A DNA stretch of 64,000 nt from a virus: IMG/VR virus record IMGVR_UViG_3300032516_000003, positions 1,341-65,340 of that record. One strand, written 5' to 3'. The position numbers and the translations under genes were made by a program. How positions within the stretch are numbered: position 1 is the first letter of the stretch; every line of letters begins with the position of its first letter. The notes beneath the pieces are model-generated. The model ran no database searches, was not told the origin of the DNA, and was given only the letters and a program-made list of their open reading frames with translations. Shown in pieces: positions 10,893 through 48,203 of the stretch.

Positions 10893-11146
10893 TGGAGAAC
10901 CTGTGGAGAGTCGGCTTCATGCCGCGGGCACTGGAACTGGTCACCCTGATGTCGGGGTTGGTCGAGATCCTCGACGTCTACTGGCATGTCGAAGACAGCG
11001 CCCTGATCTTCTTGGTGAAGAGCAAGAGCCACGAGTTGTTCCGTCAGGACTCCTTGCGGGGTACCCCGACCAAGCGGGTGCAGATGTCCAACCAGCCGCT
11101 GTACGTCGACCTAGCTGGTCTCAACGAGACCCGCCAGGTCCAGTAG
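10889..11146 (+). CDS. hypothetical protein, 85 aa
   Basis: ATGA overlap with XRE gene. Confidence 0.55.
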   Translation: MMENLWRVGFMPRALELVTLMSGLVEILDVYWHVEDSALIFLVKSKSHELFRQDSLRGTPTKRVQMSNQPLYVDLAGLNETRQVQ

Positions 11147-12022
11147 CGAATTCGCCGCCCCACGCAGCGGATCTATGTCGGTCTTCTTGATCTCGTCCCA
11201 GTCCAGTGGTTGCTTGTCGATGTAGTTGGTGAGCTCGTCGGCCTTCGACTGCAGACCCTTCGCCGCGGTGATGAGAGCCTGCAGGTTGCGGATGACCACG
11301 ACCGTCGGGGACTGAGTGGTCTTGAGCTTCTTGTCCTTCAACCGTTCCTTGCTCTCCTCCTGAGTCTCTTCCAGCATCACCCGCAGTTCTTCCTGCTGCT
11401 GCTTCTTGGGTAGGCGTGTGAGGCGGTTGGCCTGGTCGATCGTGATGAGTCCACGGTCGAGAGCCCGGCTGGCGGAAGGACACAGGTTCGCCGCCCGCTT
11501 TAGCGTCTCGCGGGCCTTGCTAGGGCTCACGCCTAGTTCCTTCGCCAGTTCCTTCACTGCTGTCTCTCGTGGCAAGGTCGGCCGGCCTGGCGATGGCTTC
11601 GTGCCCGAGCGCTTGTGCCGCTCAGCTTCGTCGGCAGCCTTCTTGGCCGCCTCGGTTTCGAGCAACTCTCCATAGCGCTTGAGACCCCAGCGCAGTTCGC
11701 TTTCCTTGGGGCTGCGGCGGTGCAGGTTCTCGATGATCGACAGGATCTCGGCGGTGCGGTCGTCGACTTGAGCTACCGCACAACGCGCCTCCTTGATCCC
11801 CTCCGCCTTCATGGAGAGGTAGCGCACCCGGCCGGCCAGGAGCTCGTAGGTGCCACTGATCTTGCCCTTCACCTGCCGGACTAGCAGCTGGTGCAGCTGA
11901 CCGAACTTGGCGATGCTGCCACCAAGTTCATCGATGTCTTTCGGGGTGATCTCTCGCTGCCAGTGGACGGGGCTGATATGGATGGCAGCGAGTGGGATGA
12001 TCTTGTCCTTGTACGGTATCAT
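11111..12022 (-). CDS. ParB-like nuclease-domain protein
   Basis: AGGAGG SD before ATG 12022 (MIPYKDK); N-terminal IPLAAIHISPVHWQRE...LGGSIAKFGQLHQLLVRQV...YELLAGRVRYL matches ParB/Srx N-domain, then HTH (TAVKELAKELGVSPSKARETLKRA). Confidence 0.8.
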   Translation of the reverse strand: MIPYKDKIIPLAAIHISPVHWQREITPKDIDELGGSIAKFGQLHQLLVRQVKGKISGTYELLAGRVRYLSMKAEGIKEARCAVAQVDDRTAEILSIIENLHRRSPKESELRWGLKRYGELLETEAAKKAADEAERHKRSGTKPSPGRPTLPRETAVKELAKELGVSPSKARETLKRAANLCPSASRALDRGLITIDQANRLTRLPKKQQQEELRVMLEETQEESKERLKDKKLKTTQSPTVVVIRNLQALITAAKGLQSKADELTNYIDKQPLDWDEIKKTDIDPLRGAANSLLDLAGLVETS

Positions 12023-27658: not shown

Positions 27659-28018
27659 ATGCTGCTGGTCCGGACCTACACGGCGCCGTCTCCGATTCAC
27701 GGCACTGGCCTGTTCGCAGCCGAACCCATTCCGGAAGGGACCGCCATCTGGGAGTTCACCCCAGGGCTAGATCAGTTGCTGTACCACCAGCCCGAGGGTG
27801 AGACGAAGGACTGGTCTTGGCGGGAAGAGGACTGCTGGGTGGTCCCCCAGGATGATGCCCGCTTCATCAACCACTCTCTCACCCCCAGTGGGAAAAGTGG
27901 TGGCAGTCGTCATGGAATCGACCGTGCTGCGCGGGACATCCTGCCTGGGGAAGAGATCACGCTGGACTACGCTACTTTCGATCTGGACTACCCAGAGTAC
28001 GAGCAGGCATTGAGGTAA
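27659..28018 (+). CDS. SET-domain protein (putative protein-lysine methyltransferase)
   Basis: SPIHGTGLFA..IPEGTAIWEF...ARFINHSLTPSGK....AARDILPGEEITLDY follows SET-domain landmarks (GxG, NHS, post-SET ExxY) as in minimal viral/bacterial SETs. Confidence 0.8.
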   Translation: MLLVRTYTAPSPIHGTGLFAAEPIPEGTAIWEFTPGLDQLLYHQPEGETKDWSWREEDCWVVPQDDARFINHSLTPSGKSGGSRHGIDRAARDILPGEEITLDYATFDLDYPEYEQALR

Positions 28019-28980: not shown

Positions 28981-29136
28981 GAATGCACAGCGCCGTCGGC
29001 ACATTCTGTACCGTCCACCCGCTGCGGCCCCGGTGGCGGGGATTTCAACCCTGCACCTCCTCCGACGAGGATCCCTTCGTGCGGCGGCCGTCGTGGCGAT
29101 CTTGTTGATCCACACCGGGAGCTGAGATCTTATACC

Positions 29137-29562
29137 ATGAGCAAGGCCAAGTTTCAGAGCGTCATGGAGCAACGCAACAACCTTCTCAACCTCCAGGCGG
29201 TGTGGACCGAGATCAAGGAGTACCTTGGCAAGTTCATGAACACGGATGCAACGCCGGCGAAACACGGCATTCGCACCAAGACGGCGGAGTTGGTGGTGCC
29301 CCAGGACATCATCAGCAACGTGATCAGCCACATCGAGGTCGAGTACCTCGGCAGTATCCAACAGCAGTTGGACACCATCGACAGGAGCGACGTCCATGTC
29401 CAAGAAGACCAGGGGAGTGAAGAACAAGGTGCCCGGAAGGCCACCCGTCAAGGCCGATCCCCACAAGCAGAAGGCCACCCTCGCCCAGTTCGCCACCCTC
29501 GCCCAAGAGGCGCAGCAGGCACACCAGCAGCTGGCGCAAAAGGCCAACCGGGCGATCGCTGA
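29137..29562 (+). CDS. hypothetical protein; C-terminus uncertain
   Basis: GC3 bias ends ~29395 where next gene starts. Confidence 0.5.
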   Translation: MSKAKFQSVMEQRNNLLNLQAVWTEIKEYLGKFMNTDATPAKHGIRTKTAELVVPQDIISNVISHIEVEYLGSIQQQLDTIDRSDVHVQEDQGSEEQGARKATRQGRSPQAEGHPRPVRHPRPRGAAGTPAAGAKGQPGDR

Positions 29563-29986
29563 GCTGTGGAAGAACCAGCAGGAGATCTTGCAGGGTCTGA
29601 GCGCGGCCGAGTTCAACCTTCGCACTCACCAGAAGGTGATGAACGCCATCTCGTTGGAGCTGGACTCGCTCAGCAAGAGAATGCCGATGCCTGTCGGGAT
29701 GGCCATCGACGCGGCTCCCTCCTTCCTGGTCAAGAAGGAATTTACTGTGGACGGACAGGCCAGTCTCAAGGTCGATTGGACCTTCTACCACAGGCAAGTG
29801 GAAGAAGAACTCAAGGCCATGCGTGAGGCGGAGAAGGCCGCGGCGAAGGAAGCGGCCGCAGTGGCAGAGAAGGCCAAGGACGAGGCCCCAGCTCCAGAGG
29901 CGCCCCCTGCCCCCGAATCTGGTACAGTAGGGGTTAAGGAAGACGGAGGCTCCGGGATTCCGGATGGGGCCACCGTCTTCGGCTAG
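29396..29986 (+). CDS. coiled-coil, Ala/Glu/Lys-rich protein, 196 aa
   Basis: GACAGGAGCGACGTCC-ATG. Confidence 0.6.
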   Translation: MSKKTRGVKNKVPGRPPVKADPHKQKATLAQFATLAQEAQQAHQQLAQKANRAIAELWKNQQEILQGLSAAEFNLRTHQKVMNAISLELDSLSKRMPMPVGMAIDAAPSFLVKKEFTVDGQASLKVDWTFYHRQVEEELKAMREAEKAAAKEAAAVAEKAKDEAPAPEAPPAPESGTVGVKEDGGSGIPDGATVFG

Positions 29987-29995
29987 GAGTCAACG

Positions 29996-30184
29996 ATGTC
30001 AGTGATCACGACGAAGAATCGGCCGAAGAGGCAGGTGGTTGTGAAGGATGCTGGCCATCCGGCAGCCTTCAACAAGATCCGCTGTCCCAAGTGCAGCCTG
30101 GGCTACGCCGTGAAGAGCATGACCGAGCCCGACAAGTTCACCTGTGAGCGTTGTCACACCACCTTCACGGTCGGCAAGCTCTAG
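29996..30184 (+). CDS. Zn-ribbon protein (CPKC...CERC), 62 aa
   Basis: AGGAGTCAACG-ATG; last + strand gene before the inverted island. Confidence 0.55.
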   Translation: MSVITTKNRPKRQVVVKDAGHPAAFNKIRCPKCSLGYAVKSMTEPDKFTCERCHTTFTVGKL

Positions 30185-31251
30185 GCCTGCGCCACCTCAG
30201 CCGGATCTTCCTCCGGACGAGGATTGAGGTCAGTCACTTCCTCCGACCCTAGTCGCTTCGCGCGCTTCCCCCGATTGATGTGATTGAGCATGAGCTGATA
30301 CAGCAGCTCACGGGCCTTGCCAGAGGCGCTGGACAGGTTCCGCACCTCGGGGTCGGACACCGGGAAGGACTGGATCTTGCGGACGATGTTCTTGTCGACG
30401 TGAAGCCGGGAGCCGTGCCAGAAGATCTGGTGACGGGAGAAGATGGTGGCCAGGCAGGAGAGGAAGGACAGCCGCAGGTAGGTTGCCCCCTCACGGAAGG
30501 TGATGACCTTGATACCCCAGCAGTCGTCGATGATCTCGAAGAACGTCCTGAGATTGTCACGGAAAACGAGCCGGCCGATCTTGGTCATGATAGTCTGGAG
30601 CCCGCCGCTGAGTTCCGTAATCGTCACGCTGCGGCCAGGACCGAGATGCGAGTGCAGGATGCCCCCGACCCGCATGAGGGAGAGGGCGCTGATGAGGTGG
30701 TCACGGGTGGCGCGCTGGGCCCAGCACACCCGGTTGTGCATGATGAAGGTCTTGTCGTGGCAGAGTCCGTAGAGCAGCTCAATCACCGGCATCGTCGTCC
30801 GCATGTTGCGGATCAGGATGTTCGGGCTCAGCTTGCTTCGATCGGCGTTCAGTGTCCGGAATCGATCTCGTTCCCACGCCTCCGTGGTACTGAAGTGGAC
30901 GGTAGCCCCGAGCTTGGGTGAAGCACCCGGCTTGGTCTTCATGAGGTGGCGAGCCGCACTGACCCGCTGGAGCCCGTCGATGATGAAGACCGGGTCCTGC
31001 AGGTAGAACGCGTCGCCCTTCTCCAGATAGGACTGTCCGCGCATGCCCAGGTCAATGTCGGGCACGGAAGAGCCGGCGTCGAATGCCTTGGCCAGCTTGC
31101 TGATGGTCGTCAGTGGCATCACTTCCCGCTGGTACTCGGCGATCTTCAGTACCGCCAACGAACCGGGGTCGAGGACACCACGCAGGATGATCTCCATGTC
31201 GGGGGTTTCATCCAGCGCGGCATGGATCAGTTTCACGCTTTCTCGGGTCAT
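30181..31251 (-). CDS. ParB/Srx-superfamily nuclease-like protein (DUF262/DndB-like, DGxxR motif)
   Basis: AGAGGAAGACC-ATG at 31251; N-terminal IAEYQRE... and FIIDGLQRVSAARHL resemble DUF262/DGQHR motifs (YQR... / DGQQR). Confidence 0.6.
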   Translation of the reverse strand: MTRESVKLIHAALDETPDMEIILRGVLDPGSLAVLKIAEYQREVMPLTTISKLAKAFDAGSSVPDIDLGMRGQSYLEKGDAFYLQDPVFIIDGLQRVSAARHLMKTKPGASPKLGATVHFSTTEAWERDRFRTLNADRSKLSPNILIRNMRTTMPVIELLYGLCHDKTFIMHNRVCWAQRATRDHLISALSLMRVGGILHSHLGPGRSVTITELSGGLQTIMTKIGRLVFRDNLRTFFEIIDDCWGIKVITFREGATYLRLSFLSCLATIFSRHQIFWHGSRLHVDKNIVRKIQSFPVSDPEVRNLSSASGKARELLYQLMLNHINRGKRAKRLGSEEVTDLNPRPEEDPAEVAQA

Positions 31252-31302
31252 GGTCTTCCTCTTTGGTGTGCTCATAATGAGCTTTGAGGTTGACGGGTTG
31301 GA

Positions 31303-31593
31303 CTACCATTCTGGATCAACGATTACGTCGTGCCAATCGATGATGTCCCAGTTCAGCCAGCGGGTGGTGAGGAGTTTGCCCTTCAAGGCCTCGTCCTTCT
31401 TCCACTCCGCGTGCTTCTCTTCGGTGGTCTGTCCACCACAGAGAGTGATCTCTCCCATGATGGTGAGGACTCCATCGCTGCGGAAGGAGTCTTCCTTGTC
31501 GATGCCGTAGTCGGAGAAGACGTTGAGGATCTTGTCCTCCTCACCTTCTTCGACCGGCTTGATCTCAATCTCCACTCGGTAGAAGCGGCTCAT
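31303..31593 (-). CDS. hypothetical acidic protein, 96 aa
   Basis: minus-strand ORF, GC3-rich, weak SD. Confidence 0.5.
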   Translation of the reverse strand: MSRFYRVEIEIKPVEEGEEDKILNVFSDYGIDKEDSFRSDGVLTIMGEITLCGGQTTEEKHAEWKKDEALKGKLLTTRWLNWDIIDWHDVIVDPEW

Positions 31594-31865
31594 GGCTGGC
31601 TCCGTGTGTCGCCTGTGAGGATCCACTTGCAGTACCAGCAGAGAGTGCGAGGGTCTTGTAGACCCAGCCGGTATCCGCAATTCTCACAGCGTGTTGGCTC
31701 GATGAGGTGCTCAGGCAGGGGGAGCTCGCTGAAGATCCTCGGCGTTACGCGCCGATGGACTCCGCAATCTGTGGTGACCTCGCCGATGATCTTCTCTCCC
31801 GGCTTGCGCCAGGGAGGGTTGTCGTCGGGGCTCACGGCTGCTCCAGCAGCAGTTGGCTCAGACAT
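31590..31865 (-). CDS. Zn-ribbon protein (CENCG...CWYCKW), 91 aa
   Basis: ATG 31865; ATGA-type overlap with 31303 gene. Confidence 0.5.
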   Translation of the reverse strand: MSEPTAAGAAVSPDDNPPWRKPGEKIIGEVTTDCGVHRRVTPRIFSELPLPEHLIEPTRCENCGYRLGLQDPRTLCWYCKWILTGDTRSQP

Positions 31866-32362
31866 GCGAGCTGCCACTCGCGCTCGATGTGGTAGTCGGC
31901 GGAGGCGGCGGCGGCGGCGGCGGAGGCGGCGGCGGAGTAGGCGGAGTAGGCGGAGGCGGCGGCGGAGGAGGCGGCGAAGGCGGAGGAGGCGGCGGCGGAG
32001 GAGGCGGCGGAGGAGGCGGCGGCGGAGGAGGCGGCGAAGGCGGAGGCGGAGGCGATGTCCAACTCATTCGGCGACACTGACCCAGGCCACTCCAGTGCCC
32101 GCCGAGTGAGTCGTAGGCATGCCTGCACCCGCCGGTCACGGTTGAGATGCCGCACCCGCTCCGCGACGACCAGCGCGTACCACCGCTGCGCGTCGAGGGG
32201 CAGCACAGTGACCAGCCACCACACGTCGATCTCGTCGAGTGCCGCGAGCAGTGACAGGTTCTCTACCGTCGGCTCGAAGCCCTTGGGAAACCGCCGACAG
32301 ACCGTGAGCACCTGTGGCTGGCAAGCATGGTGCGCGCACAACAACTCCTTCGTGATCTTCAT
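31832..32362 (-). CDS. hypothetical protein with N-terminal Cys/His-containing domain and Ala/Ser low-complexity tract encoded by (GGC/GGA)n
   Basis: CAGGAGGCTCTG-ATG at 32362; in-frame with 53-triplet repeat 31897-32055. Confidence 0.5.
   Translation of the reverse strand: MKITKELLCAHHACQPQVLTVCRRFPKGFEPTVENLSLLAALDEIDVWWLVTVLPLDAQRWYALVVAERVRHLNRDRRVQACLRLTRRALEWPGSVSPNELDIASASAFAASSAAASSAASSAAASSAFAASSAAASAYSAYSAAASAAAAAASADYHIEREWQLACLSQLLLEQP
31897..32055. repeat. (GGC/GGA)n trinucleotide tract, ~53 triplets
   Basis: GGCGGAGGCGGCGGC... in-frame on minus strand as Ala/Ser run. Confidence 0.8.
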
Positions 32363-32589
32363 CAGAGCCTCCTGGCGAGCCAGCGCTCCACCGCGCGCTG
32401 CGCCGGTGCTAGATGTACGTAGAGGCGCTCCCACGTCTCGGTGCCGTGCCAGGCATACGCTCGCCGGCCCTGGACGTGGGCGGCGACCATGCCGCCGTGG
32501 CCATCGCCGCCGACCATGAGGTCGGGGCCGTCCCAGTGCCATTCCAGCGTGAGCGCAGGGGAAGAGGGTCCTGTCTTGGCTTTTTTCAT
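32362..32589 (-). CDS. hypothetical protein, 75 aa
   Basis: GAAGGGAGGCGCGCG-ATG; stop overlaps next start. Confidence 0.5.
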   Translation of the reverse strand: MKKAKTGPSSPALTLEWHWDGPDLMVGGDGHGGMVAAHVQGRRAYAWHGTETWERLYVHLAPAQRAVERWLARRL

Positions 32590-32837
32590 CGCGCGCCTCC
32601 CTTCATGTGGCGCCGGGCGGCGAGCATGGCATCTTCGGCCTCAGTCGCAGGCGCGAAGCACTTCACCGTGAGGTAGAGCGTCCCGCACAACGCCTTGCGG
32701 TCGGCGATGGCGACGAGCGCATGGCGCAGCGCCCGTGCCAGCCGATCTTCCGCCTGGTCGGCATCGGCGCCGACGTTGTTCTCGGCGATCTCTACCAGTC
32801 GGTTGCGGATCTCACGCTCGGCTTCGTCGTCGGTCAT
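32586..32837 (-). CDS. hypothetical acidic protein, 83 aa
   Basis: TGCGGGAGGCGCGCG-ATG (same 14-nt initiation block as neighbour). Confidence 0.55.
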   Translation of the reverse strand: MTDDEAEREIRNRLVEIAENNVGADADQAEDRLARALRHALVAIADRKALCGTLYLTVKCFAPATEAEDAMLAARRHMKGGAR

Positions 32838-33085
32838 CGCGCGCCTCCCGCAGGGGGATTGAGCAAAGCGGCCGGCAGGTCGTCGAGCGTGTCGAGTAGC
32901 TCGCGCATATCGGCCCACGAAAGTACGAGGCCGGCGCACGGATCCACGAGCTTCCTCCCGCTATATTCGCCCATGAGCACCTCTGCTTCGCGACGCAGAA
33001 TGCTGATGTCCAGCGAGGTCACGCGCACGAGAATGTCCCCATGTTCGGTGTGACAGATCGTGCGCTCGTCGCCTGGGTTCAGCAT
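32834..33085 (-). CDS. hypothetical protein, 83 aa
   Basis: ATGA coupling; weak SD. Confidence 0.5.
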   Translation of the reverse strand: MLNPGDERTICHTEHGDILVRVTSLDISILRREAEVLMGEYSGRKLVDPCAGLVLSWADMRELLDTLDDLPAALLNPPAGGAR

Positions 33086-33270
33086 GATCTACCGCCCGCG
33101 GGGGGATCGAGGGCCAGTCGCAAATCCTTGACAAACCGCTTCATCACCCCCCAGTCACTCGGCGGTGTCACCGTGGCCCAGTAGACCAGCAGGTGTCTCA
33201 CCCGCTGCTCGCGCTCACGTAGTTCGTCGATCTCGCGGCGCAGTAGTCGCATGGCCTTTGGCTCGCTCAT
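33079..33270 (-). CDS. hypothetical protein, 63 aa
   Basis: ATGA coupling to upstream tiny gene. Confidence 0.5.
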
Positions 33271-33371
33271 GGCTTCACGGGCTCGTAGGTCGCCTCGAAG
33301 ATGTCTGGCTTGCAGGGGTAGCGCTCGCCCTTGACGCCGGTGATGATCCAGTCGCCGGGGATGCACGTCAT
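33267..33371 (-). CDS. tiny protein [34 protein letters not shown], 34 aa
   Basis: GGGAGGGAGAAGG SD; coupled on both sides. Confidence 0.45.
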
Positions 33372-33487
33372 CGTGCCTTCTCCCTCCCCTTGAGTTCCCT
33401 CTCCCTTTTGGTGAGGGCGCTCTCCAGGCCAGGAAGGTAGTTCTTCTTGATCCAATTCTCGTGCCGACGCTCGCGTGCTGCGTTCAT
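33368..33487 (-). CDS. tiny basic protein, 39 aa
   Basis: GTCAGGAGGCTAAGTTC-ATG. Confidence 0.4.
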
Positions 33488-33625
33488 GAACTTAGCCTCC
33501 TGACGTTGATGCCGTTGTGGTGGAGCATAGCGAGACAAGCCAAACAGCACTGGAACTCCGGATCTCTCTTCCGGTTCCCCTTGTAGCGGCCAGTTGACTT
33601 GCCTCGACAAACGGGGAACTGAACT

Positions 33626-34963
33626 TCACAGTTCTTCGTCGACGCATTCTTGGCAGAGCTTGTCGTCTCGCTGTCGCTGGTAGCGCGGGAAGTCGAGCGA
33701 GTTGGTCTTGTCACCTTGGCTCTTGTAGAACCGCGAATCATACTTCACCTCCACACAGATCGGGTACTTCTGGGTTGCGAGTCGTTCCCGCTCTTCGTCG
33801 GTGAAGCCAGAGCAGTCGGCGATATAGGTCTCTTCTCCTTTCTTGTTGAGCTGGTAGAGACTGAGCGTGCCGACCTTGCCCATGTTCTTGCCGGTCCCCC
33901 AGGTCCCCAGCGGCCGCTCTTTGGTGCCCGCGTCCGGATCCCAGTAGGCGCGGAAGTCATCGGTCTGGGCCCGCTTCATCTTGAAGGCACAGGCCGGTCG
34001 ATGGGCCTTGCCGTCGAACGAGTAGCTGTAGTCGCCGATGACCGCCGACGCCTGGTAGCAGACCCAGCCTTCGTAGTTCTCGTTCTCGGCCAGCTCCATG
34101 GCCTCCTTCACCGAGCCCTCGAAGAGCTCCAGGGTGTAGAGGAGGCGGCCCTTGGCTCGATCATCGCGGTAGTCGATGAACTTGTCCCCGAGCGTATTAT
34201 CGATCAGGTGCGCGAGCTCCAGGCAGGTGTGATCGGCCTCCAGGTGCAGGGACTTCCAGAAGGGGATGCGGTAGAGGTAGAATTTCATCCACCCCCGCTC
34301 CTTCTGCCGGTCGGTGGACTTCTGGGGCAGCTTGCAACGCATGATCTCCGAGCACTTGCCGAGGTCGCGCTTGGTGTTACCATCGCCCATGAAGGCCTCG
34401 AACATCAGGATGGTGCAGAACGGGATCTTGAGCTCCTTGATGGCCTTGACCAGATGTGGGAAGTGGTCGGACATGATGTCCATTCGCCGACTGTACAGCA
34501 CGACCTTCCCGTCAGCCTGGACCTGGGCGATCACTGTCATGCCATTCACCTTGCGCGTGAACAGCAGGTCATCCTTCGCTTCCAGAGCCGCGATGTAGTC
34601 CCCGTTGACCTTGTTCCGCGGCTTGGAGAAGCAGAGCTTCTTGGGTAGCCTCTCACCCCAGTCGATCGTCGTCTGAATGGCGCCGCCGACCAGCGGCTGA
34701 CCATCCAGGCCAACCTCGACGTAGCCTTCCTCGGTCTTCTTGCGGATGTCCCGATCCAGGTTGAACTGGGCGTTCGCGTAGGAGTCGACGTAGGCCTTGG
34801 TGTCCTCCTTGCCCTTGGGGCCGGGACGATCTTTCGTCCGGCCATGCTCCTTCCGCTTGCCGTCGACTACCGCGCCCCAGACGGTGCAAACGAAGTCGTC
34901 TTCGAGCCAGGTCTGCCAGAACCGCTCGGCGGAACGACCTTGTCTCTGCCGGAATTCTCTCAT
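33626..34963 (-). CDS. ATP-dependent polynucleotide ligase-like nucleotidyltransferase (Rnl2-like KxNG motif I)
   Basis: GGAGGGAG SD; motif I RKVNGMTV (KxNG as in Rnl2-type RNA ligases, vs KxDG in DNA ligases), motif IV-like EGWVCY, motif V AFKMKR. Confidence 0.7.
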   Translation of the reverse strand: MREFRQRQGRSAERFWQTWLEDDFVCTVWGAVVDGKRKEHGRTKDRPGPKGKEDTKAYVDSYANAQFNLDRDIRKKTEEGYVEVGLDGQPLVGGAIQTTIDWGERLPKKLCFSKPRNKVNGDYIAALEAKDDLLFTRKVNGMTVIAQVQADGKVVLYSRRMDIMSDHFPHLVKAIKELKIPFCTILMFEAFMGDGNTKRDLGKCSEIMRCKLPQKSTDRQKERGWMKFYLYRIPFWKSLHLEADHTCLELAHLIDNTLGDKFIDYRDDRAKGRLLYTLELFEGSVKEAMELAENENYEGWVCYQASAVIGDYSYSFDGKAHRPACAFKMKRAQTDDFRAYWDPDAGTKERPLGTWGTGKNMGKVGTLSLYQLNKKGEETYIADCSGFTDEERERLATQKYPICVEVKYDSRFYKSQGDKTNSLDFPRYQRQRDDKLCQECVDEEL

Positions 34964-35217
34964 GACTCCCTCCGAGTAAGTAGTTGTTCAAGGGCGCGCT
35001 CGATCTTTTGCAGGTCCTTTAGCGACTGCTTGCCGAGCTCCACCGGTCGGGCAGATACGATCCACGCCGTCAACTGCTCATCCCAATCCCCCGCCATCAT
35101 ATTCTCTGGCCAGTTCGCAGGATTCTGGTTCCGCTGTTGGGTCCAATACAGCCTGAACTTCTCGATTTCCATGTGGGCGAGTCTCACGTACTCATCCAAG
35201 GTCAATTGTTTGGCCAT
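34960..35217 (-). CDS. hypothetical protein, 85 aa; first gene of inverted operon
   Basis: CAGGAGGATATCCC-ATG; TGGTATAAGA box 24 nt upstream (minus strand). Confidence 0.6.
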   Translation of the reverse strand: MAKQLTLDEYVRLAHMEIEKFRLYWTQQRNQNPANWPENMMAGDWDEQLTAWIVSARPVELGKQSLKDLQKIERALEQLLTRRES

Positions 35218-35240: not shown

Positions 35241-35250
35241 GTCTTATACC
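35241..35250 (-). promoter_or_regulatory. TGGTATAAGA extended -10-like box
   Basis: minus strand, 24 nt upstream of first gene of inverted operon. Confidence 0.45.
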
Positions 35251-35274
35251 AGCATTCTGTGCTACCATGCGGCC

Positions 35275-35484
35275 ATGATCGCCAAGACTGTGGAAGTCCA
35301 ACTAGACACCTTCGATCCTGACATCCTCACCAAGCCCAAGGAGCAGATCAGCGTCGCGATGGATGCGGAGATCAGGCAGTTCAACCAGACCATGCTGCGA
35401 GCGGGGTTGCAGATGCTAAGCGCCTACGAGCGCACGATCTTGAAGACGTATCTCGCCTATAAGTTGGGCATCCAGCTAAAGTAG
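35275..35484 (+). CDS. hypothetical protein, 69 aa
   Basis: GC3-rich ORF; weak SD. Confidence 0.45.
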   Translation: MIAKTVEVQLDTFDPDILTKPKEQISVAMDAEIRQFNQTMLRAGLQMLSAYERTILKTYLAYKLGIQLK

Positions 35485-39781: not shown

Positions 39782-41005
39782 ATGGCCGATCCGGTGTTCG
39801 TGGAGTTGCAGACCGACGCCTTTGCCGAGAACTTCGATCGGTTCAAGTTCAGGCCGGCCAACGGCGGCGTGCGGCGGCCGGTTCGTGGCTTCGAGATCAA
39901 GGAAGACACCTACGGGATGATCAAGGTCATCCGTGCCGACGGGACCATGATCCCCCTGACCGATGCCGCCGGCCCACTCTCACCCTCTTCTGGCAGCGAG
40001 ACCGGTGCCGGCTCGGGTGTACCCCAGCAGGGAGCGACAAAGCCGCGTACTGGAGCCACCTACAACTACTCCAACTTCATCATCCAGAGCGTCGTGGAGA
40101 GCCGGCAGGAGAAGGCCCAGGTCCTGGAGACCTTCGGTGACACCTTCGTGTTCTTCTTCGGTGAGCGGCCGCGCATCCTGCAGGTCAGTGGCATCCTGAT
40201 GAACACTCTGGACTTCAACTGGCGTACGGAGTTCTGGTACAACTACGAGAACACCCTCCGCGGCACCAAGCTCGTCGAGCAGAACGCCCGCATCTACCTC
40301 TTCTACGACGATCTGGTCGTGGAGGGGTACATGCTGGGCGCCAATGCTCAAGACCTGGCGGAGAACCCGTACCACATCCCGTTCAGCTTCCAGCTCTTTG
40401 TCACCAATCACCAGTACCTCGGCAACATTGGCCAGGAGGACTATCCGATCACTCACGCGGTCAACCTCAAGCCGCTGCTCACGGCGACGGAGGTCATGGA
40501 AGCCAAGAACATCCTCAAGTCGCTGGGCATCCAGACGCAGAAGACCGACACGCTGGTGGGCTCGTTGCTCGACTCATTCCGCTCCATGAGTTCTGGTGGA
40601 CTCACCGTCAAGGCCCCATTGATTGAAGGCGTCAGTTTGAGCCTCCAGTCGGCGGCCACGATGTTCTTAGACGTGGCCAAGACCTTCTTCGGCATGTTGA
40701 TCCCTTCTCGCCTGATGCCGTACCGCACCAAGCTGCGCGACAATCGGGATGAGTTCATGAACAACTACGAGTGGGGCTACATCTCCGATGATCGGGTGAC
40801 CAAGGCCATCCTTGATCAGCAATTCGCCAGCATGTTCGCGGTGGGAGGAGCCATCGTGGCTGATCTGGTAGGCGTCGGCATCAATGCGCTCGTGCCAGGA
40901 GTAGGTTGCCCGTTGCTGGAGGCCACGCATGGCCTATTCGCCACGAGTTCACCGATGCCGGTATACAACACCTTCGCGATCCGGACGACTGGATACGGAC
41001 AATGA
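39782..41005 (+). CDS. distal-tail (Dit)-like structural protein, 407 aa
   Basis: TAGGAGCTGAC-ATG; position after TMP. Confidence 0.6.
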   Translation: MADPVFVELQTDAFAENFDRFKFRPANGGVRRPVRGFEIKEDTYGMIKVIRADGTMIPLTDAAGPLSPSSGSETGAGSGVPQQGATKPRTGATYNYSNFIIQSVVESRQEKAQVLETFGDTFVFFFGERPRILQVSGILMNTLDFNWRTEFWYNYENTLRGTKLVEQNARIYLFYDDLVVEGYMLGANAQDLAENPYHIPFSFQLFVTNHQYLGNIGQEDYPITHAVNLKPLLTATEVMEAKNILKSLGIQTQKTDTLVGSLLDSFRSMSSGGLTVKAPLIEGVSLSLQSAATMFLDVAKTFFGMLIPSRLMPYRTKLRDNRDEFMNNYEWGYISDDRVTKAILDQQFASMFAVGGAIVADLVGVGINALVPGVGCPLLEATHGLFATSSPMPVYNTFAIRTTGYGQ

Positions 41006-44000
41006 CCGGCGGCCACTCTCTTGGTCTTCGCTGCTTCCTGGAGGGCATTGAGATCCCGGTCATCGGGGCCAACGTCACTGTCGTTGCCAATGCGCCGGTA
41101 GCTGCCCAGATCCAGGTGATCGGCACCGACCGGTTGCTGACCATCATGCCGCGTACGGTCGTTCACCTGTTCTTCTACGACTACGTCGATGCCGCCAACC
41201 CGCTCAGCCAGGAGGACATCAACAACGCCGGCCTCGACCCAGCTGATCAAGAGCTGTCCAAGTACCGGCTGCTCTTCATGGGCGAGGTGCAGGGCATTGG
41301 CTTCCAGAAGAATTCAGCGGAGCGGGCCGCCATCTTGAACTGCGTCGACTTCTCCAACTACTGGGACACCACCTACCAGTACAACTTCGGTGGCCAGCTC
41401 TTCGGTGGCCAGCAGCAAGCAGCCTTCATCGGGGCCAACGCCAACCTCTTCACAAGCCCTCTGGGTCATGGTGTCGGCACCTTCGCCGCGCTACTGCAAG
41501 GCAAGTCGGCCAACTTCCCCAAGATGAAGGGTCTGCTCGCCGGCGTCGTGCGGTGCCTCGAAGCAATCGGTGGCTGCTACTACGGCAAGGACACCTTCAA
41601 GGGTGCCAACGACTTCACTTCCCTGGCCGAGCTGCGGCTGAAGATCTTGCAGCAGATCACGGCCGCGGAGTTGGATGACAGCACCGCCAAGCTGTTCGCG
41701 CGCAAGGCCTTCAACATGTGGATGAACCAGCAGATGCAGGGGCTGGGCAAGCTGGTGACCTTCCGGGGTGTGGTGCAGATCCTCGACCAGTTCATCTTCC
41801 ATGAGATCTACCCCAATCCCTGCGCCCGCTACATTCCCGAGCAGCAGGTGCAGCAGCAGCAGGCCTACTACGCGGACGCCGCCACCGATCCACGCTTCCG
41901 CAGCATCTATGATGCTTACCGCAAGCTGATCAAGCTACTCAAGTCGGCGAAGAGCAACCTCAGCCCCATCGCCATCACCGAGAAAGAGATCAAGGCCGCG
42001 GCCTCTGATCTATCTCAGGCCGGAAGAGTGCTGGATTCACTCATCGCCAATGAGGCCTCGCGCTTTACCAGTGGCATCGGCGCGCAGATGCTTTCCGTGA
42101 ACCCGGAGGTGGAGCTGGCGCGAACCTGGAAGGTGCTGGGGGGCAGTTCGCATATCAATCCGGTGGATGTGTCTACTGCACTTGACGTGATGGCTCGTAG
42201 GGCAGCCTTGGGCTACATCGACACGGCGTTGAAAAACCTGCAGAGTGCGGTCACTGGCAAGGCGATCAAGAAGCAGAAGATGGTCACCACCACGCAGCGT
42301 AGTCGGGTCAATAACCAGATCTTGCGGCCTGACATCTGGTTCGTACCTCCGCCGCGCTGCAACGTCCTCTTCCCCGAGATGTACGAGAGCTTCCAATGGC
42401 AGCGCAACTTCCTGCGGGAGGTCTCTCGCATGGAGCTGCAGACTACGCATGAGATTCTTGGGGATGATGCGCTCTTCAACGGCCGCTACTACGCTCCTGA
42501 CGTCGCTGACATGCGGAAGGGGGTGAAGCTCTCCTCCCGAAACTTCTCCAGGCTGACCATGGAGCACGAGCTCTACACAGGGATCATCCCCATGTACGAG
42601 AAGCTGAGCGAGGCCAACCTATTCGCCATGGGCAGCAAGCAGGTGAACGTCGGGGGCGCCAAGGTCGGCTACGCCCAGCGGGCCGTCAACTTCATGTACT
42701 TCAAGCACCGCTTCGCCTCGCGGCAGATGGGAGCCAGTGGCCGCTTCAATCCGTGGTTCGTGGCTGGGTTCCCGGGGCTCTTGATTGACAAGCCGATGGA
42801 CGCGGTGAACCTGGCGATCTCCGGCCTACCGGTGGAAGACGCCCTGAAGGTGCTCGACTTCCAGCCGGACGACCCGTCGGAGATCACCAGAGCGGTGCTG
42901 CTGCAGAAGCTGGTGCCGATGCAGTACATGGGCATGTGTGCACAGCTGACACACAATCTCAGCCAGCAGGGTGGCCGCACGGAGTATGCCTTCACTCAGG
43001 CGCGAGTCCATCGTGAGGATGCCGAGTTCTTGGGCGTGGACAAGGCCACGGTCAACAAGAAGGTGGGTACTGGCTCGCGGACCTATGTGGTCAGTGCCGC
43101 GGTCACCAAGCCGCCAACCAAGGGGATGCTCGGCAGATATGGCGGTCCGCTCTCTTCAGTGAAGGATGTATCTTCCTCGTACAAGGGCCGCTACCTTACT
43201 GGCTTGCGGGACACGCGCAAGTTCCTTGGCACTGGCTCCAGCAGTGCCATCGCGCAGGAGTATTACCCAATCGATGGCGCGAAGGTGAAAGCCTACGAAG
43301 TCAAGGAGAGCTTCGACCGGCGAGCCAGAGTGAAGATCAATAAGCCCATCGAGGACGCCATCCGGCCACCCTGGATCTGGGACGGCTGGACCAACCTGAA
43401 GATCGGCGACACGTACCTGCAGTTCTTCGGCACCAACGCAATCACCGACATCGAGGGCTTCACTGCCACCGGCACGGCCGCAATCAATGCCATCGGCTCG
43501 GGCCTGGCCGAAGACTACGGCATGGTGATCGAGTCGTCTCAAGGAGTGGCCCAGGGCAGCGGCGTCAATCCCATGACTGCGCCTCAGACCCCACTCACAC
43601 CATTCTCGGGGGCGGCTCCCAACTACGGCCCACCTACGGCTGGACTGGGAGCACCATCGACGCCGAACCAACGGCCCCCGTCCACCAGTCTCTCGGCCTA
43701 CGACCAGAAGATCTCCGCGGCCACAATCCTCGCCATCGAGAAGGAACGGACGATCGAGAACGCGGTGGACTATCTGGTGCGGCTGTACAGTTACCTCAAG
43801 GCCAACAGCCTGGACGTGGGCCAGTTCCTACGCAACTACTCCTGGCGCCCAGTGGCGACGTTGGTGGACATCCTGGGCTCTTCCAAGTTCACCATCAGGC
43901 CAGATCCAGCCGATCCCGACAAGTTCGTCACCAGCGGACAAGAGGGCTTCCACAGCCGGGCCTTCAGTGATGAAGCCAACCTCTTCGGGCTAGTAGATCC

Positions 44001-44187
44001 GCAGGTGGGCAACATTCTGGGACTCAAGCGACCACCAAGCGGCATGAATCTGATAGGTCGCTACCTCATGTCTATGACAGATCCACACTATTCGGCGGTG
44101 GCGAAACTCGATGTTCGAGGTGCCCGACGCAAGGTGGTGCGGGAGTACGTGAACGAACTCACCAATTCCCGAGGCTTGCTGGGATAG
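41002..44187 (+). CDS. large tail/baseplate protein (Tal-like), 1061 aa
   Basis: ATGA coupling to Dit-like gene; size and position. Confidence 0.65.
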   Translation: MTGGHSLGLRCFLEGIEIPVIGANVTVVANAPVAAQIQVIGTDRLLTIMPRTVVHLFFYDYVDAANPLSQEDINNAGLDPADQELSKYRLLFMGEVQGIGFQKNSAERAAILNCVDFSNYWDTTYQYNFGGQLFGGQQQAAFIGANANLFTSPLGHGVGTFAALLQGKSANFPKMKGLLAGVVRCLEAIGGCYYGKDTFKGANDFTSLAELRLKILQQITAAELDDSTAKLFARKAFNMWMNQQMQGLGKLVTFRGVVQILDQFIFHEIYPNPCARYIPEQQVQQQQAYYADAATDPRFRSIYDAYRKLIKLLKSAKSNLSPIAITEKEIKAAASDLSQAGRVLDSLIANEASRFTSGIGAQMLSVNPEVELARTWKVLGGSSHINPVDVSTALDVMARRAALGYIDTALKNLQSAVTGKAIKKQKMVTTTQRSRVNNQILRPDIWFVPPPRCNVLFPEMYESFQWQRNFLREVSRMELQTTHEILGDDALFNGRYYAPDVADMRKGVKLSSRNFSRLTMEHELYTGIIPMYEKLSEANLFAMGSKQVNVGGAKVGYAQRAVNFMYFKHRFASRQMGASGRFNPWFVAGFPGLLIDKPMDAVNLAISGLPVEDALKVLDFQPDDPSEITRAVLLQKLVPMQYMGMCAQLTHNLSQQGGRTEYAFTQARVHREDAEFLGVDKATVNKKVGTGSRTYVVSAAVTKPPTKGMLGRYGGPLSSVKDVSSSYKGRYLTGLRDTRKFLGTGSSSAIAQEYYPIDGAKVKAYEVKESFDRRARVKINKPIEDAIRPPWIWDGWTNLKIGDTYLQFFGTNAITDIEGFTATGTAAINAIGSGLAEDYGMVIESSQGVAQGSGVNPMTAPQTPLTPFSGAAPNYGPPTAGLGAPSTPNQRPPSTSLSAYDQKISAATILAIEKERTIENAVDYLVRLYSYLKANSLDVGQFLRNYSWRPVATLVDILGSSKFTIRPDPADPDKFVTSGQEGFHSRAFSDEANLFGLVDPQVGNILGLKRPPSGMNLIGRYLMSMTDPHYSAVAKLDVRGARRKVVREYVNELTNSRGLLG

Positions 44188-46631: not shown

Positions 46632-48203
46632 GTGGCTGTCACCTCCAGACGTCTACTGGCTGCAGGGGGCTGGATCTATGTCTACGACATCCAGGGTCGG
46701 AACGGAGTAGTCGTCAGTGCCCAGACCTACCAAGATACCGGCAACAACGTCCTCCAAGCCTGCACAGCCTCTGGCAACGACTTGCGGGTGTACCTGCGGG
46801 CCAGTTATCCCCTGGTGAACGTCCATGGCGTGGCCGGCACTCTTACACGCGCCCCTGACTCTGGGTTCTATACCGGCTACGTCGATATCACGCTGACTGC
46901 CGCCGGAAACATCATCGCCAAGGTCACCACTCCCGACAGCACCGAAGGCCCGCATGACACTGTCATTGTCGCCGTGGAGATCGCCCCGGCGATCCTCACC
47001 CTGAGTTTCATTGGCGGCTACCCGGGATCGCAGACCGAGCTCAAGGCGGGAGATGCCTTTCAGATCCATGGCACCACTGATCGTCCTTGCGTAGGCGTCG
47101 AGATTCTCGACTTCGAGGCATGCCAACACGCAGTGCTGACTTTCGCCTCGACCACATCGTTCACCGTGGCCGGGGTGATCGCCGACCGTGGCACCGCCGC
47201 CGTAGCACGACCAGCACGATTGCGCGCCCGCAACGCTGCAGGAGCCTACGGAGCAACCCGCGACACCAACTCTGGTGGCGGCTCCGTCGACGGCACCGAC
47301 GTAGTGAAATGCAACAACCTGCATCCGACCGTAATATTCGGAACGATCACCTACCCGACTGGCCAGACGGCACTCAAGAACTCCGAGTCGGCCTCTGTCG
47401 TCGTCGTGACGGCCAACTTGGATACGATTCTCTACGACAGCCCCAACAGTCAGTTGGCGATCACCGACCCTACGGCCATCGGGTCGCCCAAGATCGTGAC
47501 CCGCATCGCCGGGAACTACAATGTCGCCACGAACAACCTGCGAGCAGAGGCAGTCCGGTCGGCGAACAATGCCCATACCATCGCACAGACGGTGGTCCGC
47601 ATCGCGCACATAGCGGCCGTCATCGTGGTGACGGAACCTTATGCACGCCTGCGGGCCGGCAACCCCAACGGAGACTACACCTGCTCGATCTCCAGTGATC
47701 AGGAGCTCCCAGTAGCTCCGTCGCTACTCTCGTCGGCCAGCCCCAACTCGGGCGTGCTGCAGGGTGCAGGTTGGGTAGGTGGCCTGCTGCTCTATACCAG
47801 GGTCATGCGCGTAACGCCTACGGACGTCTCTGGCACCTATGGTTGGCGCGATCTGTCGGCGACCAATCGGGCGGGGATCGTCACTACCTCCATCACCGGA
47901 GATGCGAACTACGTCATCGGGGGCTTCACCGCTCGCAGTGTGACATTCCCTGCGTTCAGCCAGACTACTCTCCTAGGAGTTGCCGTCATCGACTATGCGA
48001 AGTTGAGGGCTGGCATCTTCACGGCGACCAATCAGCCGTCGATCAAGAATCCAACGCTAGGCAACCACGACGATCTGCTGAACACGTACACCATCGAAGC
48101 GCTGGGGGTGAACCCGACGACGATCTTTTGGAACGATGTCGCTGCGGCTAACTCGAACAGCAGCGGCACCGCACAGCTGCTCGACATCGAGGAGCTAGTC
48201 TGA
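46632..48203 (+). CDS. beta-rich structural (tail/fibre-associated) protein, 523 aa
   Basis: Thr/Ser/Gly/Val-rich composition in structural block. Confidence 0.65.
   Translation: MAVTSRRLLAAGGWIYVYDIQGRNGVVVSAQTYQDTGNNVLQACTASGNDLRVYLRASYPLVNVHGVAGTLTRAPDSGFYTGYVDITLTAAGNIIAKVTTPDSTEGPHDTVIVAVEIAPAILTLSFIGGYPGSQTELKAGDAFQIHGTTDRPCVGVEILDFEACQHAVLTFASTTSFTVAGVIADRGTAAVARPARLRARNAAGAYGATRDTNSGGGSVDGTDVVKCNNLHPTVIFGTITYPTGQTALKNSESASVVVVTANLDTILYDSPNSQLAITDPTAIGSPKIVTRIAGNYNVATNNLRAEAVRSANNAHTIAQTVVRIAHIAAVIVVTEPYARLRAGNPNGDYTCSISSDQELPVAPSLLSSASPNSGVLQGAGWVGGLLLYTRVMRVTPTDVSGTYGWRDLSATNRAGIVTTSITGDANYVIGGFTARSVTFPAFSQTTLLGVAVIDYAKLRAGIFTATNQPSIKNPTLGNHDDLLNTYTIEALGVNPTTIFWNDVAAANSNSSGTAQLLDIEELV

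Follow-up and report, generated by a model that had tools for sequence, protein, structure and literature searches.

Hyperplastic regions, morons and mosaicism at gene boundaries are familiar features of phage genomes, as in the plasticity regions of T4-type phages, and the mosaic genomes of lambdoid phages and mycobacteriophages. The locus considered here is an inverted block of twelve genes (g1 to g12), including a predicted DNA ligase gene (g2), within 64,000 nt of an uncultured phage genome (positions 1,341 to 65,340 of the IMG/VR virus record IMGVR_UViG_3300032516_000003; hereafter, the window). Like the hyperplastic and mosaic regions of other phages, it is a cluster of small genes at a fixed place between conserved modules, with contents that vary among close relatives, atypical composition, breakpoints at gene boundaries, and identical cassettes in otherwise unrelated phages. 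It differs from autonomous morons, which have their own promoter and terminator, as its cassettes are translationally coupled links behind a core ligase gene. It also differs from known mosaic regions, as two of its joints coincide with a 15-16-nt linker, containing a ribosome-binding site (RBS) and ATGA, that recurs in a phage of the donor type. We assign a probability of about 0.7 to the explanation that this is a ligase-anchored operon, with a tail that is a hyperplastic cargo region undergoing junction-precise recombination with co-occurring phages, and with an orphan ParB-fold gene as its last member.

Under this explanation, the operon of an approximately 193-kb myovirus-type phage would be read from a clade-specific promoter-like box, GGTATAAGA, and small genes 3' of the ligase would be gained, lost and replaced through recombination with co-occurring phages. 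The joints would lie at translational-coupling junctions, consisting of an RBS and ATGA, such that incoming cassettes would already be coupled to the translation of the operon. At some joints, microhomology would be provided by a common 15-nt linker, GGAGGCGC[G/T]CGATGA. The terminal gene, g12, would encode a nucleoside triphosphate (NTP)-dependent DNA-binding switch or regulator, rather than a nuclease.

A conserved ligase gene followed by variable content

Twelve successive open reading frames (ORFs) run along the minus strand from position 35217 to 30181, with overlaps at nine of the eleven junctions: six are ATGA, and the remaining three are GTGA, ATGCTGA (7 nt) and TGATG (1 nt). There is no overlap at the other two junctions, which are a 138-nt gap behind the ligase and a 51-nt gap ahead of g12. 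At the far end of the block, g12 overlaps by 4 nt with the plus-strand gene at 29996-30184, an arrangement that is kept in relatives. Hence the coupled twelve-gene structure, and its convergence on 29996-30184, are as described in an earlier reading made from the letters alone (the original prediction), which also correctly picked out a gene with an Ala/Ser tract. The lengths of 34 to 83 amino acids (aa) that it gave are accurate for the small ORFs other than g11, which has 96 aa.

These are not chance ORFs, and the block is real. When a codon model is trained on the long genes of the window, all twelve called frames score above the five alternatives in each case, and the in-frame G+C at third codon positions (GC3) of the operon genes is 0.70-0.91, relative to 0.76 for the genome. 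Ten operon products were tested, each of which is identical to the product of a gene called in other, independent public assemblies, among them contigs of 193,704 bp (from ENA) and 193,340 bp, and therefore the genome is estimated at approximately 193 kb. An identical g3 gene is called on three contigs, and the ENA contig has an 81-aa gene called at the position matching g10. We infer from the sequence that the block constitutes one polycistronic operon with a single transcript. A terminator scan found none on the minus strand of the block, and its counts were those expected by chance. The 138-nt gap behind the ligase contains no terminator, no Rfam family and no RNA structure (fold z = -0.57); a scan of the whole window with Rfam returned no family, and a tRNA scan found none. 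The features of the block, with their window coordinates, are:

35242-35251, minus strand: promoter-like -10 box, TGGTATAAGA, 24 nt 5' of the g1 ATG, followed by the RBS AGGAGGA
35217-34960, minus strand: g1, 85 aa, weak match to phrog_12101, no informative match
34963-33626, minus strand: g2, 445 aa, predicted ATP-dependent DNA ligase
33488-33625, minus strand: 138-nt gap between g2 and g3, the start of the variable region
33487-33368, minus strand: g3, 39 aa, basic, with the RBS AGGAGG upstream, no informative match
33371-33267, minus strand: g4, 34 aa, 5'-truncated remnant, PGDYG-like
33270-33079, minus strand: g5, 63 aa, no informative match
33085-32834, minus strand: g6, 83 aa, no informative match
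32834-32849, minus strand: first copy of the junction linker, GGGAGGCGCGCGATGA on the coding strand, at the g6/g7 junction
32837-32586, minus strand: g7, 83 aa, no informative match
32586-32601, minus strand: second copy of the junction linker, at the g7/g8 junction, with a breakpoint relative to an unrelated 55-kb phage directly after it
32589-32362, minus strand: g8, 75 aa, no informative match
32362-31832, minus strand: g9, 176 aa, Imm5_like-related, with an Ala/Ser repeat
31897-32054, minus strand: Ala/Ser tract of g9, a 158-bp tandem repeat (Tandem Repeats Finder)
31835-31590, minus strand: g10, 81 aa, GTG start, zinc-ribbon-like (CxxC...CxxC)
31593-31303, minus strand: g11, 96 aa, no informative match
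31251-30181, minus strand: g12, 356 aa (364 aa from the alternative ATG at 31275)
29996-30184, plus strand: convergent zinc-ribbon gene, 62 aa, the conserved right-hand boundary of the block

Five related phage loci have the same flanks around an inverted block, with a homologue of a 1300-aa gene, on the opposite strand, on one side, and homologues of the 62-aa zinc-ribbon gene and of 141-, 196- and 218-aa genes on the other; the zinc-ribbon homologues adjoin the block in L001, L002, L003, L116 and L118. Between these flanks, the block consists of the ligase alone in L001 and L115, a 366-aa gene and the ligase in L118, the ligase and several other genes in L116, seven genes in L002 (70 aa, 68 aa, ligase, 59 aa, 97 aa, 73 aa and 355 aa), and seven in L003, compared to twelve in the window. 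No other gene is present at this position in every relative, and the ligase is therefore the conserved core anchor of the block. A weak homologue of g1, with 36% identity, is found 5' of the ligase in L002, and g1 is absent in L001. The pair of g11 and g12 is carried by the window, L002 and L003 only, with g11 being 72% identical in L002 and 52% identical in L003, and g3 to g10 have no homologue in any relative. This combination of a fixed position and variable content is that of a hyperplastic region of accessory cassettes. When tested by comparison with relatives, as the original prediction suggested, the accessory island it proposed is therefore apparent in g3 to g10, which are variable and absent from relatives, but does not extend to the conserved ligase.

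The box at the head of the operon, which the original prediction had also pointed out, is conserved across the phage clade. Eight sites in the window match the motif with at most one mismatch, against 0.84 expected, and seven of them lie 13-30 nt 5' of an RBS and ATG, including one preceding the divergent 1300-aa gene. The sequence GGTATAAG(A) is found in the window at 455 (-), 3125 (+), 4546 (-), 6306 (+), 9974 (+), 35242 (-) and 35624 (+), and in relatives at L002:7389, L115:8956, L118:7726 and 8956, and L116:2942 and 4826. The box is thereby kept upstream of the ligase block in the four relatives L002, L115, L116 and L118 (GC 42 to 61%). No sigma-70 -35 partner is evident beside it. It would plausibly function as a promoter, and might be recognised by an RNA polymerase that the phage itself encodes, because the genome encodes a phiKZ-like tail sheath. 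The odd copy of the box, at 29128-29137 (-), overlaps the ATG of the plus-strand ORF starting at 29137. A conserved 69-aa gene at 35275-35484 (+), with homologues that are 80% identical in L002 and 49% identical in L001, begins only 57 bp away from where g1 starts in the opposite direction, and hence the control region shared by these divergent genes is very short.

Near-identical cassettes in an unrelated phage

The composition of the cargo is distinct from that of the genes at either end of the block. The GC of g5 to g10 is atypical, at 0.62-0.70 relative to 0.61 (with g5 to g7 at 0.63-0.675), and codon scores are low (about 0 to 0.13) for g5, g6, g8 and g10, with g7 and g9 being intermediate, whereas the codon use of the ligase, g11 and g12 resembles that of the rest of the genome. 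The comparison of GC3 and codon usage with the flanks that had been proposed for this island thus bears out its expectation for several of these genes. The exact g6 protein is present on 11 contigs. Among the contigs sharing cargo genes is a 55-kb phage (L127/L129), assembled independently in ENA and Joint Genome Institute (JGI) data, that has a GC of 66-67%, is otherwise unrelated to the window, and encodes DUF5131, two N6_N4_Mtase and Phage_integrase proteins. Across the 685 bp containing g5 to g7 (33270-32586), it has 98.5% nucleotide identity with the window, and across the 542 bp containing g9 (32362-31830), the identity is 92%. All the breakpoints between the two phages, at 33270, 32586, 32362 and 31830, are at gene junctions, with the g5 to g7 block ending exactly at the g4/g5 and g7/g8 junctions. 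Between the shared blocks, the 55-kb phage has genes of 169 aa and 84 aa in place of g8. As identity is limited to g5 to g7 and g9, and GC and codon use are atypical, these cassettes have been horizontally exchanged. Just 5' of the shared cassettes, the 55-kb phage also encodes proteins with many GTATAGD heptads (DUF4774/DUF7666; L129:3-284, L130:787-1575 and L127:4037-4777).

Further variation is evident at the g4/g5 junction. A 2.8-kb contig (L130), with which the DNA identity of the window reaches 33380, encodes an intact 85-aa protein, the last 34 aa of which are identical to g4; hence g4 is what remains of a PGDYG-like gene after the loss of its 5' part. The match of g4 to PF14083 (PGDYG) has an E value of 1.6e-5 and a score of 25.6 bits, below the cutoff of 27, and covers only positions 7-36 of the 102 in the profile. 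From g5 on, the ENA 193.7-kb contig and the window have 99.99% identity, and they diverge exactly at the g4/g5 overlap (window position 33269). Beyond this point, the contig contains a different 88-aa gene, with TTGA coupling, and a further ORF that runs off the contig start, in place of g4 and g3 (L113:1-449). The other end of the same contig stops within g4. This suggests an unresolved assembly bubble at a g4/g5 hot spot.

The two copies of the junction linker are a perfect 16-nt direct repeat flanking g7, and the 15-nt core of this linker recurs in the 55-kb phage, at four gene junctions in a row. The core encodes Gly-Gly-Ala-Arg-stop, and holds the RBS and ATG of the following gene. The linker may have a role in recombination.

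The repeat in g9 is itself polymorphic in length, as other assemblies contain 156-aa alleles (P0254 and P0255) that are 20 residues (60 bp) shorter, possibly through the collapse of the repeat in short-read assembly. The g9 protein matches phrog_18326 (9e-5), and has no direct match to PF21805 (Imm5_like), although its remote homologues P0259 and P0260 match this model at 6e-7 to 8e-7. All three proteins share a start of the form MKITKxxL..AC, a helical middle, an Ala-rich repeat and an LxxLL end. The differences are that g9 itself falls below the PF21805 model, and that no toxin gene is nearby. For g10, there are weak Zn_ribbon matches. The HsdS-like protein P0247, which had clustered with g5, was rejected as a relative, being an unrelated clustering artefact.

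The DNA ligase and the ParB-fold protein

A class of ligases combining WGR, NT and OB_2 domains has been catalogued in delta-proteobacteria and Planctomycetia (Williamson & Leiros 2020, PMC7470946), for which no biochemical characterisation was found in the literature. The order of domains in g2 is common to this class, with an N-terminal WGR domain, an adenylation domain, and an OB domain containing motif VI. However, g2 is phage-encoded, and in its sub-clade motif I is KVNG instead of KxDG. Approximately 140 homologues of g2 were found, many with PF01068, and some named WGR-domain proteins by JGI; the ligase had one weak match only in a tblastn search of GenBank phages. In an alignment of 22 relatives, K138 and G141 of motif I are invariant (within K-V-N-G in the sub-clade, and K-R-D-G in distant relatives), as are E189 (motif III), E298-G299-W-V301 (motif IV), K328 and K330 (motif V), and D434-K435 of motif VI (RxDK), in the C-terminal OB domain. 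In the N-terminal domain, which has a WGR fold, W29-G30 is invariant. The Pfam domains among these relatives are PF01068 in 19, PF04679 in 17, PF14743 in nine and WGR in five. A search with the family profile reaches archaeal and human DNA ligases (E value 1.8e-20), covering both catalytic domains, and g2 is similar to solved DNA ligases. Therefore, based on its motifs, profile, structure and WGR domain, g2 is identified as a WGR-nucleotidyltransferase-OB ATP-dependent DNA ligase, for which the most likely role is the sealing of nicks in phage DNA as it is replicated or repaired. The Rnl2-type motifs that the original prediction had seen in this protein are not the correct reading, as an Rnl2-type RNA ligase would combine the adenylyltransferase with its own C-terminal domain, and lack the OB domain and motif VI.

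Some of the closest described counterparts of g12 are found among orphan proteins with the ParB fold. Orphan proteins with the ParB-CTPase fold on mobile elements bind ATP, GTP or CTP (Kaljevic et al. 2025, PMC12704722). In phages, proteins with a ParB fold are able to activate enzymes that modify DNA, namely the thymine dioxygenases of 5mYOX-ParB pairs (PMC13229309). In common with the proteins in both surveys, g12 is a phage ParB fold outside a ParA/parS context, with conserved pocket-type residues. Unlike them, it is missed by the PF02195 model used in those surveys, and in contrast to the activators, g12 is not adjoined by a dioxygenase or methyltransferase.

The family to which g12 belongs includes several hundred close homologues, with approximately 50% identity, none of which has a Pfam domain or an informative name. 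YQRE, R71-G72 (in a GMRG motif), N135 and R148-N149 are invariant in the alignment, as are the D, G, Q and R of the DGQQR-type motif D92-G93-[L/Q/Y]-Q95-R96. The N-terminal domain has a ParB/sulfiredoxin (Srx) fold, while the C-terminal half is all-helical, with no match to a nuclease profile or fold. The window's g12 itself has no match in Pfam, PHROGs, NCBIfam or PADLOC, and no match to PF03235 (DUF262/GmrSD_N) at E<=1, although 33 of 58 relatives match the latter weakly (best E value 2.9e-4). Matches to PF14072 were limited to three of the 58 relatives, at E values of about 0.03, and there were none to the NCBIfam DGQHR/DndB models. Neither g12 nor its relatives match PF02195, setting them apart from canonical ParB, and the family sequence profile has no match in the PDB; tblastn of g12 against GenBank phages likewise returned no match. 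With DUF262/GmrSD_N proteins (GmrSD, BrxU and SspE) and DndB, the g12 family shares the ParB/Srx fold and the YQR and DGxQR motifs. However, unlike DUF262 proteins such as GmrSD, no DUF1524/HNH nuclease domain was found in g12, and its family stands apart from the mainstream DUF262 proteins; it also differs from members of dnd, ssp and BREX systems, as a solo gene outside such clusters. Hence the original prediction was right to place this protein in the ParB superfamily with a distant likeness to DUF262, but neither the DGQHR likeness nor the nuclease-like character survives. Thus g12 is an orphan ParB/Srx-fold, DUF262-like protein, and most likely not a nuclease.

The profile of this family retrieves only 527 proteins out of 1.84 billion representatives (356 at E<=1e-30), and therefore the family is discrete; the 150 best-scoring matches listed are 266-422 aa in length. 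Among 69 matches in species-representative genomes, 52 are in named lineages of Patescibacteria, or candidate phyla radiation (CPR), and 10 are unclassified. Several of the CPR copies are on contigs of 0.3-1.3 Mb, and the neighbours in CPR genomes are housekeeping genes, encoding SecA, aminoacyl-tRNA synthetases, MurJ and GroEL. Across 39 viral contigs, the neighbours vary, with PD-(D/E)XK in five and MT-A70 in two. No conserved partner emerged from the clustering of neighbours in 94 loci, or from Pfam searches of 118 flanking proteins, and there were no dnd genes among the neighbours. At approximately 100 other loci of the family, there is no adjacent ligase (by tblastn) and no g11 homologue, and consequently the pairing of ligase and ParB-superfamily protein on which the original prediction drew does not generalise; two-gene modules of g12 with g11, or of g12 with the ligase, were rejected for the same reason. 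In a neighbour-joining tree, the clade of the window and other phages nests within genome-derived sequences. The nearest cellular homologues are in genomes with 42-46% GC, whereas g12 is fully adapted to a phage with 61% GC, and a host assignment from the CPR bias was rejected on these grounds.

By analogy to the orphan ParB folds of mobile elements, g12 is probably an NTP-binding DNA-associated switch or regulator. A bolder proposal is that it founds an undescribed and sharply delimited orphan ParB/DUF262-fold family of NTP switches, which is a solo chromosomal gene across many CPR lineages that has been repeatedly captured by phages. The phage copies could mimic DUF262-type restriction sensors without having a nuclease, pair with them in a dominant-negative manner, or form a DNA clamp that is gated by NTP and controls a DNA transaction of the phage. 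We regard this as doubtful; were it true, the ParB fold would gain a functional class not known before.

Genome context and alternative explanations

The window has a GC of approximately 61%, and neither the window nor the block has a DNA-level match in GenBank phages, in the case of the block by megablast. Its left half carries genes of nucleotide metabolism and of early type, for an HNH endonuclease, a dNK/thymidylate-kinase-like protein and dNMP kinases, an HD protein, RNase HII, an SLT domain protein, an amidase-type lysin, and a canonical ParB_N+HTH protein. The last of these, a second ParB-superfamily gene of 303 aa at 11111-12022 (-), matches ParB_N at 7e-11, and heads a small minus-strand block, with genes of 65 aa and 142 aa, within the plus-strand early region; no ParA was seen near it. 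Also in the early region, at about 27659-28018 (+), is the gene for a 119-aa protein with a SET domain (PF00856), which is a putative lysine methyltransferase. The ORFs at 29137-29562 and 29396-29986 (+) lie in different frames and have 167 nt in common, and each has homologues conserved across five related phages; the first of these ORFs, of 141 aa, is uncalled in public assemblies, and the overlap may represent a missed gene or a recoding site. The right half contains virion genes, including a tail sheath at 46632-48203 (+), with 34% identity to the phiKZ-like jumbo Pseudomonas phages Noxifer, PhiPA3 and PA1C, which are the only cultured relatives found for the sheath. Near it, the 1093-aa protein at 40906-44187 had no GenBank phage match. 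The genes of the ENA 193.7-kb contig have coordinates offset by 39 bp from those of the window, and therefore these near-identical genomes differ by an indel of in-frame size, located between about 12 kb and 14.2 kb.

Small, variable early phage genes are often anti-defence genes. The original prediction had proposed a dedicated island for counter-defence or nucleic acid repair, in which a nuclease-like ParB protein and the ligase would cooperate, and the tiny proteins would inhibit host defences. The middle of the block is indeed variable and compositionally foreign, g9 has a likeness to the putative immunity proteins of the Imm5_like family, and a remote relationship links g12 to the sensor domain (DUF262) found in type IV restriction enzymes. 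However, the proposed partnership of a ligase and a nuclease is contradicted: the DNA ligase is kept in all relatives, with or without g12, which itself lacks any nuclease domain, and has neither a ligase nor any conserved partner nearby across the roughly 100 other family loci. The link from g9 to Imm5_like is transitive, and below the threshold for g9 itself. No PADLOC match was found at E<=0.1 for ten products (g1, g2 and g5 to g12, with g3 and g4 unscanned), and therefore counter-defence remains speculation. Pfam, PHROGs and NCBIfam identified no named family beyond weak matches among the products scanned, which for NCBIfam, with nine operon products and the 85-aa protein of L130, meant weak ligase matches only. 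We consider such an island unlikely, and the locus to be a clear, and fairly ordinary, example of phage genome mosaicism, in which counter-defence is not demonstrated.

An alternative at the other extreme is that all twelve genes are a conserved replication or repair module of this lineage, functioning as an accessory operon to the replisome. This would fit with the conserved position of the ligase, the genome-typical codon use of g11 and g12, and the presence of RNase HII, dNMP kinases and a ParB_N protein in the same half of the genome. Yet it is largely refuted by L001, L116 and L118: the ligase alone is common to all relatives, g11 and g12 are confined to the window, L002 and L003, g3 to g10 occur in no relative, and g5 to g7 and g9 are instead found in an unrelated temperate phage, making this explanation highly improbable. 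It is also conceivable that g12 is the functional centre of the locus, as a phage copy of a Patescibacteria-type orphan ParB/DUF262 NTPase controlling a DNA transaction, with the rest of the block being incidental. Possible roles include a switch between early and late transcription, activation of a DNA-modifying enzyme in the manner of 5mYOX-ParB, or dominant-negative interference with DUF262-type restriction enzymes. The family is certainly discrete and strongly conserved, with 356 clusters at E<=1e-30, and its predominance among named CPR lineages, often on contigs of 0.3-1.3 Mb and beside housekeeping genes, and the nesting of the phage clade among genome-derived sequences, accord with this view, as do the precedents for ParB-fold proteins that activate modification enzymes (PMC13229309) or bind ATP, GTP or CTP (PMC12704722). 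Nevertheless, no modification enzyme adjoins g12 in the window, a partner is conserved nowhere, the difference in GC between the cellular homologues and the phage-adapted g12 speaks against recent capture from a host, and the proposed function is hypothetical. A central role for g12 is therefore improbable.

The ligase-anchored mosaic operon remains the preferred explanation, in which any role for the cargo in phage-host conflict would be conjectural, and several points weigh against parts of it. The promoter and the single transcript are both predictions from sequence. The linker may recur simply because it combines a good RBS and coupled start with a Gly-Gly-Ala-Arg end. The short contigs L130 to L134, which contain further combinations of cassettes, could be chimeric across the shared 685-bp block; they were therefore dropped as proof of additional variants of the 193-kb phage, and only the long contigs (the window and the 193-kb contigs, and the 55-kb phage in two independent assemblies) are considered safe. 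The motif I of g2 has Asn at the position of the usual Asp (KVNG), and its activity is putative. NTP binding by g12 would follow from its fold and the order of its motifs, with no curated profile matched. Finally, the cargo could be a coherent functional set, for instance in anti-defence.

This locus makes phage mosaicism visible in progress, at base-pair resolution, between two unrelated phages from related environmental samples, one of them large and with a phiKZ-like sheath, and the other a 55-kb temperate phage. It also contains two proteins of biochemical interest, in a member of the WGR-fused class of DNA ligases, and a representative of an unannotated ParB/DUF262-like family that is abundant in small CPR genomes. 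For the annotation of phage genomes, it counsels caution, as the co-occurrence of a ligase, a nuclease-like protein and tiny ORFs is insufficient for calling a counter-defence island.

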